A stretch of DNA of 39,500 nucleotides from a virus. Under the pieces are notes generated by a model. It worked only from the letters and a program-made list of their open reading frames with translations. It did no database searches and was not told the origin of the DNA. Numbering within the stretch: the first letter of the stretch is position 1; each line of letters begins with the position of its first letter. The stretch lies in UHGV virus genome UHGV-0205585. One strand, given 5' to 3'. The position numbers were made by a program, and so were the translations under genes. Below, in pieces: positions 1,400 to 21,327 of this stretch.

Positions 1400-1904
1400 G
1401 CCCCACACCACCCATCTGTGATAGGATATCGTCCAGTTTATCTGATGTTTGTACCTCGAGATTAACCTTGTCTGTAAACATTCCTAAATGCTTGCCAAGT
1501 AATTCTAAGGCCTTGATTTTATCTGCCATCTTAATCTCTCTTTCCACTCCCTCTCCATCTTTAGTGGGAATGCTCTTAACCTTTACGGATTGTATGGCGG
1601 CGGTATCCTCCGGCAATGCTCCGTCTTTCAGCGTGGCATCTTCTGTATTTATTACGTCCACTGCATTAATAAAAGCCATCTTTGCCAGTTCCTGTATAAC
1701 TCGGTCTGCGTTAACCCCTGTGCGCTTTGATCGTTCAGCCATAGCCTTGTCTATATGCGCGCGTATGTACGGGTTATTCATATTGTCACAACCGCTTTGC
1801 CTTGCACTGTCCGGGCTATATCCTGCTCTAATGGCAGCCTGAGTAGCGTTTAAGTCTATTAGGTATTCATCTATAAATGTTTTTTGCTTCTTAGTAAGTG
1901 CCAT
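1389..1904 (-). CDS. terS: Terminase small subunit (Terminase_2 type)
   Basis: LTKKQKTFIDEYLIDLNATQAAIRAGYS and KIKALELLGKHLGMF signatures; lies upstream of terL. Confidence 0.95.
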   Translation of the reverse strand: MALTKKQKTFIDEYLIDLNATQAAIRAGYSPDSARQSGCDNMNNPYIRAHIDKAMAERSKRTGVNADRVIQELAKMAFINAVDVINTEDATLKDGALPEDTAAIQSVKVKSIPTKDGEGVEREIKMADKIKALELLGKHLGMFTDKVNLEVQTSDKLDDILSQMGGVGLEE

Positions 1905-2190
1905 TCAGACTCACCTTCTTTCTTAGGAGGACCGGCCGCCCTGTATTTCATGCAGCCGGTTTTATATGTTAGTAAGCTATAATTAATGTCTTTACGCGAA
2001 GAAGCACCCACCCGGCAATCGCCTAAGTAGATGCTTCTCTATGTGTTTTCCCCGGTTCTTTCTGGCTGCCGGCTTCCTATTGTTCCGTGCTCGGAACCTA
2101 CGGTTTAAAGTATATGCGCCGTAAACTTTACTATGTCTGGAGAACTTTTTCGTAACAACAGATGAGCTATATCTAATTGTCTACATTACC

Positions 2191-2199
2191 ATAATATCA
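2191..2199 (-). promoter_or_regulatory. Probable late promoter (extended -10, TG-A-TATTAT)
   Basis: Directly downstream of the ArpU/RinA-like activator gene and upstream of terS; no consensus -35. Confidence 0.5.
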
Positions 2200-2236
2200 C
2201 GGAAGTACCCCCTCGTAGTTATCCACTTTTTATAAA

Positions 2237-2635
2237 TTATCTTTTTTGAGCCAATAAGTAGAAAAAATATCGTCTTGATTCATAAAATTGCTTTCTGGCT
2301 TTTGGTACTCTTCCCATATATTCATACGAGATTCCGTCTGTCACATTTTCAATCAAGTATGGGTATATATCTGGGTCCGCTTCCATTGCTGTTTGCTCTA
2401 TCAATTCAATATCATTTTCAAGCATAACATTCCGTATAGCTTTTCTTTCAACTGGGTTTCCTACCGTGTTGCCATGCGGCATCCCGTCGCCAACTATAGC
2501 GCCAAGTCCATAGCTTTCCCTGAGTTGCTTTTTCTTCTCGTTGTATTGCATACAAAAGTACTTAAGTTCATTATATTTTTCCCTGGATATATTGTAGTCG
2601 CTAAGCTTCATGTCTCGTTTTCTTACCCTATCCAC
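2237..2635 (-). CDS. ArpU/RinA-like late transcriptional activator
   Basis: YNELKYFCMQY...NPVERKAI...FYESRRYFFYLL pattern; last early gene before terS. Confidence 0.7.
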   Translation of the reverse strand: MDRVRKRDMKLSDYNISREKYNELKYFCMQYNEKKKQLRESYGLGAIVGDGMPHGNTVGNPVERKAIRNVMLENDIELIEQTAMEADPDIYPYLIENVTDGISYEYMGRVPKARKQFYESRRYFFYLLAQKR

Positions 2636-3953: not shown

Positions 3954-4214
3954 TTAATTATCATCTTCACTTATTTCACCATCATACACATTCGGCATGT
4001 GTATCCAGGCTATAACCTCGCTGACCTCTGGAAGTAGTACATACTCATCAGCTCCATACATATAAAATCCATATCCTCCAGAATACGTATTTTGCCTGTA
4101 GAATACTGGTTATCTTAGTTCTCTACGGTTTCTTATATGGTCATAAACCGTTACTATCAGGCATTGCCCTATTGCTGGTAAGCATTTTTTTATTGATATC
4201 CAATCTGCGTTCAT
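3954..4214 (-). pseudogene. DUF551-like gene with one in-frame TAA (4110-4112)
   Basis: MNADWISIKKCLP...RELR*PVFY...VIAWIHMPNVY; AGGAGG RBS; frame stays open after the stop to 3954. Confidence 0.7.
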
Positions 4215-14327: not shown

Positions 14328-15533
14328 ATGGCACAAGTAACAGCAAGAAAAAGGGGAAAAACATGGGAATATGGATTCGAAGGATCAAAAATAGGCGGCA
14401 AGAGAAACCGGATAACTAAAGGAGGTTTTCGGACTAAAGGGGACGCTCTTGAGGCAGGGACAAAAGCCTTGGCTGAATACAATCAATCCGGAATGCACTT
14501 TGAACCTTTAAATATTAGTGTTTCGGATTATCTTGATTACTGGCTTGAAGAACATATAAAAAAGAATATGGATTACAACACTTACCTCGATTATGAAAGC
14601 AAGGTGCGTATCCATATTAAGCCTAATTTGGGGCAATACAGGCTATGCGCTCTCCGCCCAGATGCAATACAGAAGTGGATAAATTCCATCAAACAAAAAG
14701 GTTATGCAAAAAACATGGTATCAAATATACTTTCTTGCCTATCTGGGGCATTGAACTACGCAATACAGCCATGTCAGTATATCGAATCGAATCCATGCTT
14801 TTTTGTTAAGGTTCCGCGAATACAGGAAAACAAAATAAAAAAAGAACATACGGATTATATCTGTGGTAAGGAAGATTTTTCGAAAATAATAGATCGATTC
14901 GGACCTGATTCTAATTTTTATATTCCGCTTATGATCGGGTATCACTTAGGAACCAGAATAGGCGAGACTTATGGCATAGATCTGTTTAAAGATGTAGACT
15001 TCGAAAAAGGAGAATTAAAAATTCAACAGCAGGTTCAGAAGGAGGGAAAAAACTGGTATTATCGTTCCCCGAAATATGATTCCTATAGAACTATAAAGTT
15101 AGGTGCTATTATATCTGATATATTAAAAAGGGAAATGATAGAGCGAAAAAAGAACATATTAAAATATGGAGAATATTTTGTAAAAACTTATGTTATGCCA
15201 GATTGCTCTATTGTTCAGTATCCAGCCAGTATTTCTGTTCCATATAGAGAAATTATGCCAGTAAGCGCAAAGGAAAATGGAGCATTGCTAACTCCGCATT
15301 CATTCCATTACTGCGCTAGAGTTATACATTATGAGCTGGGGATGCCATTATTCCATAGCCACGCATTACGTCACACGCACGGAACTATTCTCGCTGAAAA
15401 CGGGGTTAATCCCAAAACCGTAATGGAAAGACTCGGGCACAAAAATATTCAGACCACTTTGCAAACTTATATTTTTAACACGGATAAGATGCAGCAAGAT
15501 GCCGTAAACATTTTCGAGTCTGCTATATCATAA
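14328..15533 (+). CDS. int: Tyrosine integrase
   Basis: Arm-binding N-terminus, SAM-like domain, catalytic R (GTRIGE), HALRHTH, RLGH..I.TT...Y. Confidence 0.96.
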   Translation: MAQVTARKRGKTWEYGFEGSKIGGKRNRITKGGFRTKGDALEAGTKALAEYNQSGMHFEPLNISVSDYLDYWLEEHIKKNMDYNTYLDYESKVRIHIKPNLGQYRLCALRPDAIQKWINSIKQKGYAKNMVSNILSCLSGALNYAIQPCQYIESNPCFFVKVPRIQENKIKKEHTDYICGKEDFSKIIDRFGPDSNFYIPLMIGYHLGTRIGETYGIDLFKDVDFEKGELKIQQQVQKEGKNWYYRSPKYDSYRTIKLGAIISDILKREMIERKKNILKYGEYFVKTYVMPDCSIVQYPASISVPYREIMPVSAKENGALLTPHSFHYCARVIHYELGMPLFHSHALRHTHGTILAENGVNPKTVMERLGHKNIQTTLQTYIFNTDKMQQDAVNIFESAIS

Positions 15534-15534
15534 T

Positions 15535-15820
15535 TTGTCAACCAACAAAATTTTGGTTGACAAATCGTAGACAAAAGTGCAAAACATAGATGTAGCATGA
15601 CTAAAAACCGCTATAATTACGGGTTAATAGCGCAACAGTTTCAACGTGCCCACTTTGTGCAAATATTGTGTCATGTAATATTTTATCATATTGTATTATA
15701 TTTTCTCTCTTTTTTAAATTCATTGTTTAAGCGATACTAATTGTTAAATTATATTATATCATAATGTTGGGTGTTTTGCAGTATTTTATGTGCGGTTGAC
15801 AAATGGTAGACATTGTCGAC
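15535..15820. mobile_element. attP with a replacement 3' end of an RlmD/RumA-type RNA methyltransferase gene
   Basis: Minus strand 15651-15601 reads GHVETVALLTRNYSGF*. Arm-type repeats GGTTGACAAATSGTAGACA lie at 15555 and 15794, with an inverted copy at 15535. Confidence 0.8.
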
Positions 15821-16255: not shown

Positions 16256-16705
16256 ATGGATAGAGAAAATATAGATATTTTAAATAGTCTTATTGCCGAA
16301 ATTGACAAACAGCGTAGAGATATTATATACAAGAAGATTCTGCGAAAACGATTGATAAAGACAGTTTCCATAATCCTTGTATTTGCATTACTTTTATTTA
16401 TGCCCATAGAAGCCGCCTATCTGCAGGAACCAGAATTTGTCCTGCTGGATTCCGAGCACAACATAGATCAGAACGGGAATTGCGTGGTACATGCTATTGT
16501 AAGGCATGTGAACTTCGATAGGCAGATCGTAAGCGCTGCTACCGGGATGACTGCCAGGCACCAGGTTAAGTTTAACGATCTGCGTAAGTACCGGACGATT
16601 ATATATATGTATAGGAATATCTTTGATTATGTGGGAGGGAAGCCGTTTAAGACTGTACACATGTACTCGGATTCTAAATTTGTACATATGCCAAAAGATA
16701 ATTGA
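16256..16705 (+). CDS. Membrane-anchored hypothetical protein
   Basis: GGAGGGG RBS; one TM segment (VSIILVFALLLFMP) followed by a soluble domain. Confidence 0.7.
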   Translation: MDRENIDILNSLIAEIDKQRRDIIYKKILRKRLIKTVSIILVFALLLFMPIEAAYLQEPEFVLLDSEHNIDQNGNCVVHAIVRHVNFDRQIVSAATGMTARHQVKFNDLRKYRTIIYMYRNIFDYVGGKPFKTVHMYSDSKFVHMPKDN

Positions 16706-16841
16706 CAAATCTGGTGGATAATATTATACTATTAGTGTATTAACAACTATTGTTAATACATATGACTCATAGCCCGGAATCCATATCCGGGCTATACCTG
16801 TTTCTTTGCATAATAATAGCCCCAGAATATACAGGGGCTAT
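16702..16841 (+). ncRNA. Putative orphan small RNA
   Basis: TTGACA-17-TATACT promoter followed by hairpins at 16736-16760, 16769-16795 and 16816-16841; no ORF. Confidence 0.45.
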
Positions 16842-16851
16842 AAGATACTTA

Positions 16852-17226
16852 TTAATTCTTGGTAATAGCAGCAAGCAAATTTTGCTGGTCTTCCGAGCTT
16901 GCTGTGTCATCGTCTAACATGGAAGCTCCACTCATTACATAAGCTACAAGTCGCCTATTGTATCTGTCCTTCTCTGCTTCCGCGTCAATATTGGTGTTAA
17001 TTTTTTCCCATTTGTTCAGAAGCAAATTTCTGTATGCGGATAGCTTTTGCGGTGCATGTGTAATGTCTGCTGTTGTATGCGGTGCATTTTTTAAGTGCCC
17101 GTATGTATTAATATTGTTATATAACAACCCCATAGCATAGCAGTATGTAGCACGATCATACGGGATATTTTCTACTTCTTCCTCTGCTCCATTTTTAAAA
17201 ATATTTCTTAGTTCTTCAATTTTCAT
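16852..17226 (-). CDS. 124-aa helical protein resembling Cas11/the C-terminal domain of type I-B Cas8b; candidate anti-CRISPR
   Basis: GGAGG RBS; Y.YAMG.L...H...L.NKW.K.N..I...R...LVA.V...Q.NLLA pattern; directly downstream of the mini-CRISPR array. Confidence 0.5.
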   Translation of the reverse strand: MKIEELRNIFKNGAEEEVENIPYDRATYCYAMGLLYNNINTYGHLKNAPHTTADITHAPQKLSAYRNLLLNKWEKINTNIDAEAEKDRYNRRLVAYVMSGASMLDDDTASSEDQQNLLAAITKN

Positions 17227-17247
17227 CTCTCGTCCTCCATTTTATAC

Positions 17248-17282
17248 GAAAAGCCCCAGAAAACTATAGTCCAGGGCTTTTC
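17248..17282. terminator. Bidirectional terminator-like hairpin closing the mini-array
   Basis: GAAAAGCCC...GGGCTTTTC with flanking A and T tracts. Confidence 0.65.
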
Positions 17283-17310
17283 TTTTTTTATACTATTAAT
17301 CAATATAAAT

Positions 17311-17453
17311 GTTTCAATACGCCATGCGTTACGTTTAATTTTTTGAAACAACAAACTTAAATTAGCCTATATTTCAAAACAACTTATGTTACTATTAATT
17401 AATTAAGATATGGATTTACCAGATTTAAATACAAAATGATGTTAATATTTATG
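17311..17453 (-). CRISPR. Degenerate mini-CRISPR array: 3 type I-B-like repeats, spacers of 22 and 30 nt
   Basis: Minus-strand repeats CATAAATATTAACATCATTTTGTATTTAAAT, AATTAATAGTAACATAAGTTGTTTTGAAAT and AATTAAACGTAACGCATGGCGTATTGAAAC. Confidence 0.7.
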
Positions 17454-17458
17454 CCGTA

Positions 17459-17487
17459 ATTATACAGCATATTACTTTCTGTGTCAA
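17459..17487 (-). promoter_or_regulatory. Consensus promoter of the mini-array
   Basis: TTGACA-17-TATAAT; predicted start near 17452, at the beginning of the first repeat. Confidence 0.8.
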
Positions 17488-17509
17488 TTGCAACGCTTTT
17501 TATCTAAAT

Positions 17510-17761
17510 TTATTTAATTTTAATGCCCGTATCCCAGCATCCAAACACTAGATTATGCCCGTAGGTAGTACTTCTATTTCCGGTTCCATAAGTAACCATT
17601 AAACAACCATTTGTCGCAAGTGTTATTCCTGTAATTCCTCTTCTGGTTATTCCGTCCAGCCAAGAGTCTTCTACCTTTCGCCATCCTACTATTTCCCCTG
17701 TTTCTAGGTCGAATTTTTCGTCTAAAATATTCCATGTTCCATCTGTGTTTTTTGCTTTCAT
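17510..17761 (-). CDS. 83-aa hypothetical protein; candidate Acr
   Basis: GAGG RBS; promoter TTTACA-17-TATACT overlapped by an operator; divergent HTH gene. Confidence 0.7.
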   Translation of the reverse strand: MKAKNTDGTWNILDEKFDLETGEIVGWRKVEDSWLDGITRRGITGITLATNGCLMVTYGTGNRSTTYGHNLVFGCWDTGIKIK

Positions 17762-17812
17762 ATTATCCTCTTTTCTTCCGGTTCTCCCGGTTTCTGTTCT
17801 TTAATTGTCTTT

Positions 17813-17930
17813 AGTATACACCTGTTTTGAGTGAATGTAAATATGGAATATTCACTAAATTTGAGTGTATGTTTTTAGCAATTATATACACCTATTATAA
17901 GTTGATATGTTTTGCGTGATGTGGTATTCT
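17813..17930. promoter_or_regulatory. Divergent promoters with three ATWCAC-N9-GTGWAT-type operators
   Basis: Operators at 17816-17836, 17850-17870 and 17886-17906 (degenerate). Minus promoter 17841-17813; plus promoter TTGATA-17-TATTCT at 17902-17930. Confidence 0.7.
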
Positions 17931-17952
17931 ATTATAAAAAGGAGTTTTTAAG

Positions 17953-18183
17953 ATGATAAAATATAAAATTGAAGTCATTCCCGAATTAAAGAAGCGCGGT
18001 TATAGCGCATACCGGATTAGAAAAGAAAAAATTATAGGGGAGTCACAAATGCAAAAAATCCGTGATGGAGAACTTGCATCGAAAGAAGTTTTAAACAAAA
18101 TATGTGAGATGTTAAATTGCCAGCCCGGTGATCTGCTGGAATATATACCGGATGAACAAAAAAAGAAGACCCCTGAGGAATAA
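17953..18183 (+). CDS. Cro/C1-type HTH (HTH_26) regulator, Aca-like
   Basis: LKKRGYSAYRIRKEKIIGESQMQKIRDG...LNKICEMLNCQPGDLLEY. Confidence 0.85.
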   Translation: MIKYKIEVIPELKKRGYSAYRIRKEKIIGESQMQKIRDGELASKEVLNKICEMLNCQPGDLLEYIPDEQKKKTPEE

Positions 18184-18259: not shown

Positions 18260-18529
18260 TCAGAACAGTCTCTTCATAACACTTTCGGCTATTCCGTTTG
18301 TATCAAATACTAGCGGAACATCCTTCAATCTGTTGTCATTTTGCTTATACATTTTAAGGAAGTCCAATATGGTAACTCCTGTAACTTCGTCTGTATTCAT
18401 ATCCCTCATAACCACTATATTATCAGGGTCTTCGTCTCCGTAGGAATTAGAATTATCCCCGCATGAATAATAAAGAACATCATTGGCTTTATCGTAGTTA
18501 ATATTATTTTCGATATATTTCACTGCCAA
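18260..18529 (-). CDS. DUF2283 family protein
   Basis: YDKANDVLY...IVVMRD..T.EVTGVTILDF. Confidence 0.75.
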   Translation of the reverse strand: MAVKYIENNINYDKANDVLYYSCGDNSNSYGDEDPDNIVVMRDMNTDEVTGVTILDFLKMYKQNDNRLKDVPLVFDTNGIAESVMKRLF

Positions 18530-18833
18530 TTCCCCCTTTTATTTGCTTCTGTGGCCAAGCAGATACTACAGAACATATATTTCCTTCATTTTTTTGAGTT
18601 ACCACTTTAGTATATGCGTCATATGACGATATGCTTGATTGCTTAAAGTAAACATTTCTTGCTGGATGTTGATTGCTTTCATATATTACATCTGGATCTT
18701 CTATGGTATCTTTCACAGCATTAAGGTTGTTAGACATAATCGCATGTCCTGATGTTATATGCCCTGTCCAGGTGGTATCGGAGCATATAACTTTATCGCC
18801 TAATATGTCTACAGTTTCTATAACGTTCCCCAT
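18504..18833 (-). CDS. RelE/DUF4258-like putative ribonuclease toxin
   Basis: W..HI..GH...VKDTIEDPDVIY...R.VYFK...KVV...VVSAW; overlaps the DUF2283 gene. Confidence 0.55.
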   Translation of the reverse strand: MGNVIETVDILGDKVICSDTTWTGHITSGHAIMSNNLNAVKDTIEDPDVIYESNQHPARNVYFKQSSISSYDAYTKVVTQKNEGNICSVVSAWPQKQIKGGIGSEIYRK

Positions 18834-18844
18834 ATTACTGCCTG

Positions 18845-19144
18845 CTATACATTCTTAAAGTTTGGGATAGATCCGTACTCTTTCTCGTATGAGTCTAAAT
18901 TCCCTTCCAGCAATGTTTTCATAGCTTTAGCCATCTGCGGGCTCATTCTAATTATTATTTCATTATCTACATCTTTATGCTGACTACTATCCTTGCCCTC
19001 GTATATAAATTCTCTTTTAAATTGCAAACAGAAATCAAAAAAAGTGTTGCTGATTGTTAATCCATTTGCATATACTTCATTTCTTACCTCTTTGTTATCA
19101 TCGGTATTTGCTGCTGTTGCTGAAACTTCATTTTTGTTCTCCAT
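18845..19144 (-). CDS. DUF3467 family protein
   Basis: VYANG...DF.LQF...IRMSPQMAK.M..LL..NL..YEKEYGSI; own promoter TTGAAT-17-TATAAT (19202-19174). Confidence 0.7.
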   Translation of the reverse strand: MENKNEVSATAANTDDNKEVRNEVYANGLTISNTFFDFCLQFKREFIYEGKDSSQHKDVDNEIIIRMSPQMAKAMKTLLEGNLDSYEKEYGSIPNFKNV

Positions 19145-19256
19145 ACACTTATCCTCCACGCATTTTTTTCTTAATTATAACCTATATTCTTTTTCTATTC
19201 AACTAAAAGAACCTGCGCAAGGCTGTTTAAAATATGGCGAGAACAAACATCCGCCG

Positions 19257-20780
19257 TTAAGCCCTTATAATATATTTTTCCGCAATAAACCCGGAATACT
19301 TCTTATCTATTAGAATCTGGTACCACCCGGATTCTTTATTAATAACATCTACCAAATTCCCTTTATTAAGCTTTGGATATCCCACAATGTTGCCGTAGTT
19401 TTCCCCTGGTCCTTTGCGGACATTTACCCCGTCTCCGGTGCACTTTCCAACCCAGATAGAATTGTCCGTTCCTTTTACAATGGCATCAAATCCGGCTCCC
19501 TTAATTTGCCTTACCAGCATGTCAGCATTCTTCTTATTAGAGAATACACCACACTGCACCTTATACTGTCCTGCCTCTTCTTTTACGATAGCGTCAAAGC
19601 CCTTATTCTTTAGGACTGCCGCCAAGCTATTTGCCAGCTTCTTATCCTTGTAGCTGCCAGCCTGTACTTTATAAGTACCGGTTTGATCCGGTTCCGGCTG
19701 TGGCGCCGGTATCGGTTTATGTTGCTCTTCTTTCGTGCCGATTATAGCCTCCAGGATATTTAAAATCTTGCCGCCGTATCCACTGCCGGCAGCCCATCCT
19801 TTGCCTTTTGGATTCTCCTGGATACCCAGCCATTCTACATACTCGGCACAGCCTCTTTCTACAAAATTAAAGCGTGGATCTACGCACTCTTTCTTTAAAG
19901 GCTCTGTACAGGCGTAGGCTTTAAGATGCTGGATCTGCGCCCGGATACCGGTCTTTGTGTTGGGGAAAGAATTACCTTTCATGCCGTTTGCTGTAACCCC
20001 CATACCGCAAAAGTTGTTTTGATCCAGTGTGACGGCGCTTTCTTTAAAAGTAAAGTTCCCGGTTTCCAGGCAGCTTTGTGCAAATGCTATATCTCCCCGG
20101 ATTCCTTCAGCCTTGCCCTCTTGGATGTACTGCGAGACCGTATCCAATACCGATTGTGCGACATTGGAATTTTTAGACTTAATATACGTCTGCATCTGCT
20201 CTGCTGTAGCGGCTGTTTTACCAGTAATCTTTGTGCCGGTTACCGATGCGCTCCCGGAAAGCTTCTTTTTAAATGCCTGCCATGCAGATTCATTCAGGAC
20301 ATAAGGATTTGGGCAGATCTTCCCGTTTACATCATAGTGGCGGATAACCCGGTCAACTGGAATCCCATATTTTTGCATCAGCATCTTTGTTAACTCTATG
20401 GTTGCTTTTACTGTAGCTTCTTCGTAATACCAATCCTGGTCATTGGCATTCATGGAGGTAGTGCTACGCTTTCGGACACACATCTCTATATTTAAAGTAT
20501 TGTAATTATTTGCCTTGCCGTAGAATGCTCCGCCGCCGCTTCCCTGTCTGCCACCGCCTACGCTCCATGCTCCGTTGCTGTCTTCCACGCTCTGCCAGAC
20601 CTCTCCCGAAAATCCTACATAGTAATGTGCACTGGCTCCAACATCTCCGCTGGCATAGTAAGTACAGTTTGCTTCAGCTCCGCCCAGGGCGCCGACATAG
20701 TGTATAACAATGTACTGTATGCCTTGCCCGTTCCTGCCGTTGTAATGGTTATATGGTGTGATTTTCTTATTTATGTTCAT
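19257..20780 (-). CDS. Endolysin: Amidase_2 + glucosaminidase-like + 2x SPOR + SH3
   Basis: IVIHY..ASAHY..RHYDV..KICP; AFAQSCLETG..NNFCGMG; YKVQ.G.F repeats; GVNVRKGPG. Confidence 0.9.
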   Translation of the reverse strand: MNINKKITPYNHYNGRNGQGIQYIVIHYVGALGGAEANCTYYASGDVGASAHYYVGFSGEVWQSVEDSNGAWSVGGGRQGSGGGAFYGKANNYNTLNIEMCVRKRSTTSMNANDQDWYYEEATVKATIELTKMLMQKYGIPVDRVIRHYDVNGKICPNPYVLNESAWQAFKKKLSGSASVTGTKITGKTAATAEQMQTYIKSKNSNVAQSVLDTVSQYIQEGKAEGIRGDIAFAQSCLETGNFTFKESAVTLDQNNFCGMGVTANGMKGNSFPNTKTGIRAQIQHLKAYACTEPLKKECVDPRFNFVERGCAEYVEWLGIQENPKGKGWAAGSGYGGKILNILEAIIGTKEEQHKPIPAPQPEPDQTGTYKVQAGSYKDKKLANSLAAVLKNKGFDAIVKEEAGQYKVQCGVFSNKKNADMLVRQIKGAGFDAIVKGTDNSIWVGKCTGDGVNVRKGPGENYGNIVGYPKLNKGNLVDVINKESGWYQILIDKKYSGFIAEKYIIRA

Positions 20781-20799: not shown

Positions 20800-21288
20800 C
20801 TACTCTGCAAATACCCAATCTTCTGCCAACATATCCGCTTGACTTGCAAGCCACCCCATCTGTACGCCAGATGTTCCTACAAAAGCAATTGCCATGTTGC
20901 CTATGCTGTCATGATTGCAGTTAACGATGCACCCTTCCGCGTTTTGATAGCTTATATTCTTTGCCAGCTCGATATATTGTTTTTTGCCGTTCCAGCCTTT
21001 ACGGGCTACTTTAAGACCTCTTTTTAGGTATTTAATGGCATCGGAAAAACTAAAAGTTGCTGTACCTCCAAGCGCCGGAGTATTGCTGTTATCCGCGATG
21101 ATAAATTCATCAGAAGCCATATTTTCAAACGTGTACTGCGGTCGCTGTGTATCCAATAGATTTATAATCTCTCCGTCCTTTGTGTGCATCATTATAGTTT
21201 CGTCTTCCCATGCCCAATACCCTTCCCAGCTAGGAAGTTTTACCTTTGCTCCTTTTCGCATTGCCTCAAATGCTTCTCTAAAATTCAT
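20800..21288 (-). CDS. Tandem DUF2829 (Tad2-like) protein
   Basis: MNFREAFEAMRKGAKV...SDEF and FSFSDAIKYLKRGLKVARKGWNGK...WLASQADMLAEDW. Confidence 0.8.
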   Translation of the reverse strand: MNFREAFEAMRKGAKVKLPSWEGYWAWEDETIMMHTKDGEIINLLDTQRPQYTFENMASDEFIIADNSNTPALGGTATFSFSDAIKYLKRGLKVARKGWNGKKQYIELAKNISYQNAEGCIVNCNHDSIGNMAIAFVGTSGVQMGWLASQADMLAEDWVFAE

Positions 21289-21327
21289 ATATTTTACCTT
21301 CCTTTCCAAAAAAGAAAAGAGAGCGAT

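Follow-up and report, generated by a model that had tools for sequence, protein, structure and literature searches.

A conserved phage unit joining a type I-B-like repeat array to a remote Cas11 homologue, a likely two-part anti-CRISPR

Cracr RNAs and arrays are viral, lie apart from cas genes, carry degenerate repeats and short spacers, are often multiplexed and include type I-B candidates (Liu et al., bioRxiv 10.1101/2024.10.29.618823). The same preprint reports synergy of a Cracr with a co-encoded protein anti-CRISPR (Acr), AcrIF24. A regulatory RNA of this class has at least 9 PAM-proximal spacer bases in common with the host CreR or CreA, and its target is the promoter of cas genes or of creT. 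The array that we analyzed here is likewise viral and cas-less, with degenerate repeats and short spacers. However, its partner is a copy of a Cascade subunit, while the word Cas11 is absent from the main text of that preprint, and the 30 multi-spacer Cracr arrays listed there belong to types I-C, I-E and I-F rather than I-B. On the protein side, AcrIB4 is a homologue of the Cas8b tail that shares 38% identity with the final 90 aa of its Cas8b, and the preprint describing it reports it as limited to Listeria (Katz et al., bioRxiv 10.1101/2023.06.24.545427); it has been proposed to replace Cas11 in the type I-B Cascade (EVADES, 10.1101/2025.06.06.658234). The 124-aa gene in our locus resembles AcrIB4 in being a stand-alone phage copy of a Cas8b C terminus, but its product has the full length of Cas11, is far more diverged, comes from a Lachnospiraceae phage and is encoded behind a guide array.

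Regulatory I-B mini-arrays of clostridial and fusobacterial phages have shortened spacers and lie near Acr-like genes, and the spacer there has matches both in a host mini-array and at a site that precedes cas6 (bioRxiv 10.1101/2023.03.03.530964). Our array shares the I-B type, the short spacers and the Acr-like neighbours, whereas the viral-genome section of that preprint describes no Cas11 copy beside them. Racr and solitary repeat units are phage repeat mimics placed behind a promoter (PMC10651486); promoter-led mimicry is common to both, but our array has three units with conserved spacers instead of a solitary repeat. Finally, acr-aca operons and AcrIB2 have been described (PMC10732046), and the present locus resembles such operons in having an HTH regulator and inverted-repeat sites beside small uncharacterized genes near the lysis module, although we identified no validated Acr or named Aca family in it. 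Viral regulatory arrays have a precedent in Cracr, and Cas11 mimicry has one in AcrIB4; notable here is that an RNA mimic and a subunit mimic recur as a pair. We did not find this pairing in the literature covered (titles and the starts of abstracts, with few subscription journals); supplementary tables of the preprints may list such loci.

The window, that is, the whole 39.5-kb stretch of DNA that was analyzed, is a nearly whole, circularly permuted temperate tailed phage with terminase, portal, head, tail, lysis, replication, repressor and integrase modules. The named relatives of the 124-aa protein and of a neighbouring 83-aa protein come from Robinsoniella, and DNA nearly identical to the window occurs in mouse gut data sets; from these two observations we infer that the host is a Robinsoniella. 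The locus belongs to the accessory zone bounded by the integrase (ending at 15533) and the amidase (ending at 19257). As the first-pass annotation had stated, no other cas genes accompany it: none was found among the 44 other window ORFs scanned or among 10 accessory-zone proteins, and a weak partial match of one window ORF to Cas12a (E 4e-4) was taken as chance. Several other features of the window were noted. Inverted and direct repeats just past the integrase (15534-15573 and 15794-15812) are likely att core or arm sites. A toxin-antitoxin-like cassette of three genes, DUF3467, a PBECR2-like nuclease and DUF2283, occupies 18260-19159 on the minus strand; it is represented by RNA contigs in both RNA runs examined and is replaced by other DNA in one related strain. 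A gene with a Tad2-like (Thoeris anti-defence 2-like) domain (Pfam E 5e-24) lies between holin and amidase at 20800-21309, also on the minus strand.

That annotation had combined an HTH regulator, an 83-aa gene, the array and the 124-aa gene into one composite system. The real unit is two of these four parts, the array and the 124-aa gene, both on the minus strand, which run from the 83-aa stop codon through 23 nt, a promoter, the succession R1-S1-R2-S2-R3-S3 of pseudo-repeats (R) and spacers (S), a 13-bp hairpin and a Shine-Dalgarno sequence to the 124-aa gene and two closing hairpins. The features of the region are as follows.

17953..18183, plus strand: Cro/C1-type HTH regulator, 76 aa, Aca-like by position; Pfam HTH_26 E 2.8e-13; divergent from the 83-aa gene
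17816..17906, no strand assigned: three inverted-repeat operator-like sites, ATWCAC-N9-GTGWAT, overlapping divergent promoter-like sites
17510..17761, minus strand: 83-aa protein, anti-defence candidate by context only; 5 relatives at 63-98% and a homologue in a second prophage (L002)
17459..17487, minus strand: sigma70 consensus promoter TTGACA-17-TATAAT ahead of the array, 12/12 match
17423..17452, minus strand: pseudo-repeat R1, the most degenerate, with the 8-nt handle ATTTAAAT at its end; 13-17/30 ungapped to other I-B-type repeats
17401..17422, minus strand: spacer S1, 22 nt; differs in L002 at positions 1, 6 and 16
17371..17400, minus strand: pseudo-repeat R2; 24/30 to the Clostridium butyricum I-B repeat and 26/30 to the first repeat of a viral record, L011
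17341..17370, minus strand: spacer S2, 30 nt, whose 3' end can pair with the R2 handle
17311..17340, minus strand: pseudo-repeat R3, ending in ATTGAAAC; 27/30 to the second L011 repeat and 19/30 to the C. butyricum repeat
17283..17310, minus strand: S3, a trailing segment resembling a spacer, about 27 nt; conserved in L002 except for an indel
17248..17282, minus strand: 13-bp hairpin with a short U tract, -18.7 kcal/mol (L002 copy, -20.3)
16852..17226, minus strand: 124-aa stand-alone remote homologue (HHalign) of the Cas8b1 C-terminal domain (Cas11); Shine-Dalgarno GGAGG at 17238-17234
16769..16836, no strand assigned: two hairpins closing the unit

The earlier description of a promoter-driven mini-array was borne out, with the full sigma70 match (TTGACA at 17487, TATAAT ending at 17459) followed by three repeat-like units. 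Each unit has at its end an 8-nt handle of the ATTTAAAT/ATTGAAAC kind, and Cas6 cleavage leaves 8-nt handles of this kind. Against the repeat of an annotated C. butyricum array, our I-B reference, R2 was the top-scoring 30-mer on either strand of the 39.5-kb window (24/30, runner-up 19); such reference repeats belong to other hosts and not to the cognate one. R1 has both 11-nt halves in common with the repeat of another viral record (L042) if one base is gapped, as read by eye. The self-similarity of the array is modest, with a best self-match of 21/29 that was reached in 4 of 300 dinucleotide shuffles, and a search of Rfam gave no CRISPR family match up to an E value of 5. Compared with these non-cognate I-B repeats, the units are of a CRISPR repeat family, and they are viral and located outside a cas locus, as in Cracr arrays.

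The second prophage, L002, is on contig OKWQ01000015 beside tad pilus genes. Its promoter, array, hairpin and gene follow one another as they do in the window; both promoter hexamers are retained, and the spacing sequence between them varies. Between the window and L002, the array is identical at 129/143 positions (90%), the neighbouring coding sequence at 288/375 and its four-fold sites at only 15/29 (52%). Because the array is so much better conserved than the four-fold sites, we read purifying selection as acting on repeats and spacers alike, and the alignment indicates that this non-coding array is under selection. The 3' end of S2 and the R2 handle (17341-17378, minus strand) can also form a long hairpin, the complementary ends of which are kept in L002.

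The array spacers are 22-30 nt long, compared with about 34-37 nt in the C. butyricum array, a shortness of the kind described for regulatory guides. No spacer had a target with a convincing seed in the window, in L002 or in 11 plasmid-borne cas loci (75 kb, non-cognate). Seed-only matches, including one of S3 over the 83-aa promoter at 17842, occurred at the level expected by chance for AT-rich 8-mers and were rejected. In the I-B locus of C. butyricum (L022, 7700-7790), we also observed by eye an element of two repeats that resembles CreR and precedes cas6. Homologues of the array or the 124-aa gene were absent from a BLAST search of phages and plasmids, none of 50,697 phage records matched the array region in a meaningful way, and IMG/VR scans returned nothing for the 124-aa protein, the 83-aa protein or three exact repeat patterns. 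Two raw DNA runs had no reads on the array, an outcome to which we gave no weight.

These spacer properties bear on two other readings of the unit. The guides could use the host Cascade against competing phages and plasmids or to regulate host genes, with the Cas11 copy tuning or completing the complexes. Viral mini-arrays often target other viruses (10.1101/2023.03.03.530964), and contigs from RNA runs cover the 124-aa gene, as would suit such a function. However, the repeats are degenerate, the spacers do not reach the length seen in the C. butyricum array, the same spacers are kept between phages whose protein is only 76-77% identical, and the phage records held no meaningful match to the array region; we therefore regard this reading as improbable. 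It is the combination of degenerate repeats, short spacers and their retention between phages that makes regulatory guides a better fit than acquired ones. The other reading is a CreTA-like, CRISPR-guarded toxin, in which the guides would direct Cascade to repress the promoter of the unit itself and the 124-aa protein would become toxic once an incoming Acr disabled Cascade. A single promoter for array and gene, with a hairpin between them, is the layout that such a device would have, but no spacer matched the unit's own promoter or any other part of the window beyond chance, and the 124-aa protein is a Cas11 homologue, which together make a guarded toxin very improbable.

The conserved 13-bp hairpin between the array and the 124-aa gene had been missed in the first-pass annotation, and a terminator scan did not call it. 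In L002 it carries a U-G to U-A change and a different loop. It is likely a leaky terminator or the 3' end of the last guide, the former because only four U residues follow its GC core. The 124-aa gene lies directly behind the array in both the window and L002 and has no strong promoter of its own, only a single 9/12 site. In two RNA runs of a single study, contigs span 16760-17304 and 16772-17300, with strand unspecified and DNA carry-over possible. They bridge the 3' end of the hairpin, and neither a single transcript nor its level can be read from them. The same runs gave no coverage of 17334-17464, and the contigs end 14-18 nt downstream of the predicted cut in R3, an observation on contigs of one study that we did not count as evidence. 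Converging on the end of the 124-aa gene, an 11/12 promoter on the plus strand is followed by a palindrome and a strong hairpin (16702-16798), possibly a small RNA; a 36-79-nt piece like this segment was found at other loci in DNA and RNA runs.

The 124-aa protein had been called Cas11-like from the window alone, where the likeness is invisible; it emerged once distant relatives were added. The close family comprises 14 relatives at 72-95%, and none of the 15 family members matched a library HMM. Aligned to the C termini of 11 plasmid-borne Cas8b proteins, the close family by itself gave a weak score of 17 (P 0.05); the alignment was collinear end to end over 117 columns, and block shuffles scored as high in 4/150 global and 30/150 local trials. 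Searching 1.84 billion representatives with the profile added four proteins, three of which were retained as full-length distant relatives; the fourth (P0069, 267 aa, repetitive) was left out. The expanded alignment consisted of these three, chosen without reference to Cas8b, and six close members. Against the 11 Cas8b C termini, it reached 89% HHalign probability with a pairwise E value of 2e-6 over 116 columns, and 0/100 block shuffles scored as high. Two of the distant relatives, P0068 and P0067, matched the Cas8b-tail HMM singly at E 9e-6 and 1e-4 (in a database of 4 sequences). Among 39 ORFs of 100-145 aa, only 3 aligned to the Cas8b tail over at least 100 columns, namely the L011 copy described below, the window protein and its L002 homologue. 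At the level of these profile comparisons, the family of the 124-aa protein is remotely homologous to the C-terminal (Cas11) domain of Cas8b, and, as with AcrIB4, homology (remote only) extends over the length of a stand-alone gene outside a cas operon.

The structural model of the protein is all-helical with a pLDDT of 54. Its predicted helices (residues 25-39, 59-76, 82-98 and 111-122) are placed similarly to those of the L011 copy (27-44, 62-75, 81-96 and 111-118). Foldseek searches of PDB and viral structures and a VIA-wide search found no Cas11 for the window model, and a control Cas11 copy (pLDDT 60) also retrieved none in PDB. These fold searches were uninformative because the PDB searches failed for the positive control as well and both models are of low confidence. 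The ESM Atlas held no usable match. Weak nuclease and enterovirus matches in a PDB sequence search (E 0.02 or worse) and a single 17-residue cyanobacterial match in a GTDB scan were set aside as chance.

The order of repeat RNA, terminator and toxin gene is identical to that of a type III toxin-antitoxin locus, and toxins of such loci are RNases of the ToxN/CptN/TenpN families. Our units, however, alternate as repeat and spacer rather than running head to tail and match CRISPR I-B repeats, no Pfam family of that kind matched the 15 family members, and the model is all-helical. This reading is scarcely credible and is already largely excluded by the Cas8b-tail homology.

The pairing of an I-B pseudo-repeat array with a stand-alone Cas11 recurs, as judged from the alignments, in an independent phage lineage. 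A scan of viral records with the R2/R3 consensus gave 17 matches, 15 of which were dropped for lying in long open frames; the remaining two, L011 and L012, are closely related and were counted as one lineage. Both have promoter-led two-repeat arrays with the same two repeat variants (26/30 to R2, 27/30 to R3) and different spacers. Downstream follow a terminator-like hairpin, a new promoter-like site, a 226-aa protein and then a Cas11 copy of 118-119 aa, which matches PADLOC Cas8b at positions 433-544 of 559 (E 2e-13; HHalign 95%); in L011, an HTH_26 gene comes directly after it. The whole arrangement occupies 2768-4135 of L011, a record with a ParA-like gene, and 858-1958 of L012. A search for longer proteins with the L011 copy found none. 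Their clear homology to Cas11 makes these two phages more suitable for testing than the window. No direct similarity links the window family to the L011 copy, which suggests separate captures or long divergence.

The first-pass annotation had named co-occurrence across phages as a check. L002 and L011/L012 pair an array with a Cas11 copy, but a Cas8b match was present in only 2 of 12 array-bearing viral records (L011 and L012), and the other 10 contained neither a detectable Cas8b-tail gene nor a relative of the window 124-aa family. Thus, the pairing is not general, with the qualification that the Cas8b model would miss a Cas11 copy as diverged as that of the window. Further viral arrays with degenerate I-B repeats and AT-rich spacers were seen in L038 and L040 (near 2480-2640) and L039 (near 2501); those of L038 and L040 lie near a 144-aa gene, and a short motif is common to it and the L011 226-aa protein. 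Arrays of I-B-type repeats in four other viral records (L033, L036, L037 and L042) lie beside genes of 444-451 aa that look TnpB/Cas12f-like by eye.

The second lineage also bears on whether array and gene act together. The RNAs could be pure decoys, Racr-like, that titrate Cas6 or Cas7 without a DNA target, with the Cas11 copy an independent Acr clustered in the same anti-defence island. Clustering of Acr genes is known, the array of L011/L012 appears to form a unit separate from the Cas11 copy, and the absence of spacer targets in the window, L002 and the 11 plasmid cas loci would be expected of decoys. We nevertheless consider independent decoys unlikely: the spacers are nearly as conserved as the repeats between the window and L002, which a decoy would not need, and in both phages the gene follows the array directly without a strong promoter of its own.

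Upstream of the unit, the predicted HTH_26 gene facing the 83-aa gene across three inverted repeats has an Aca-like layout, and the earlier description of a divergent HTH gene with operators agrees with what we found. The operator-like sites lie at 17816-17836, 17850-17870 and 17886-17906, the third being imperfect; the pattern has one additional match in the window, at 3984, and the sites are presumably bound by the HTH protein. A small HTH protein with inverted-repeat sites over a neighbouring promoter is what describes an Aca, with the adjacent Acr a candidate only. That candidate, by position only, is the 83-aa protein, which matched no family in Pfam, NCBIfam, PHROGs or PADLOC; the ESM Atlas offered only propeller-like leads, which were rejected. 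It was also correctly noted that this gene has no evident terminator, since the 23 nt from its stop codon to the array promoter contain no terminator call.

The 83-aa and 124-aa families travel together among close relatives (for 10 of 15 cluster members, the longest contig has the same length as that of a member of the other cluster, an indirect sign), for which shared descent is a sufficient explanation. In L002, six small ORFs precede the array. The 83-aa homologue is number two among them, with one upstream and four intervening, and a shared leader motif precedes four of the six. The divergent gene there encodes a different small regulator and not an HTH_26 protein. Also in L002, a DhiT/DhiA-like toxin-antitoxin pair (1769-2363, minus strand) stands at the position of the three-gene cassette of the window. 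Because of the intervening ORFs and the different regulator, the four parts are not one fixed cassette, and the four-part composite system was overstated, with an 83-aa protein that matches no family and is loosely linked to the array. In our reading, the region is a variable island of early genes that ends in the array-Cas11 unit.

Taken from sequence comparison, the conserved promoter-array-gene unit probably acts as a two-part anti-CRISPR against a putative host type I-B system. It would be transcribed from its own promoter, in the lysogen as well, and more strongly by read-through if HTH repression of the upstream 83-aa gene were lifted. Host Cas6 would cut R1-R3, yielding 8-nt handles and two or three short-spacer guides, which would occupy Cascade and, by Cracr-like partial pairing, could steer it to cas or guarded-toxin promoters. 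Read-through of the hairpin would yield the 124-aa protein, which would replace host Cas11 and spoil R-loop completion or Cas3 licensing, in the manner suggested for AcrIB4. In the earlier proposal, guide-like RNAs and a Cascade small subunit jam or reprogram the host I-B complex; the I-B-like array, the remote Cas11 homology and the second lineage speak for it, but no spacer target was found in the sequences searched. The hairpin that separates array and gene in the window counts against this reading, as does the position of the L011/L012 Cas11 copy, which is not directly behind the array. Additionally, a native-like Cas11 might help Cascade rather than harm it.

A bolder and rather doubtful version holds that array and Cas11 copy form a matched kit that turns the host Cascade into a phage-programmed repressor. 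The phage Cas11 would block R-loop locking and Cas3 licensing on full-length immune crRNAs and leave seed binding by the short guides intact, the Cas6 cut at R3 would mature the Cas11 mRNA and so tie inhibitor output to the host CRISPR machinery, and the pairing would have arisen at least twice in Bacillota phages.

If the two-part reading is true, guide-RNA hijacking and subunit poisoning, both recent additions to the known counter-defence strategies, are joined in one transcription unit against type I-B CRISPR. The unit offers a test of the Cas11-replacement mechanism, which is proposed but unproven. It also provides a search rule, in which an I-B pseudo-repeat array flags a Cas11 copy too diverged for standard HMM libraries to detect. 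Finally, a small protein that makes the native Cascade a non-cutting repressor could serve gene silencing in gut Clostridia.
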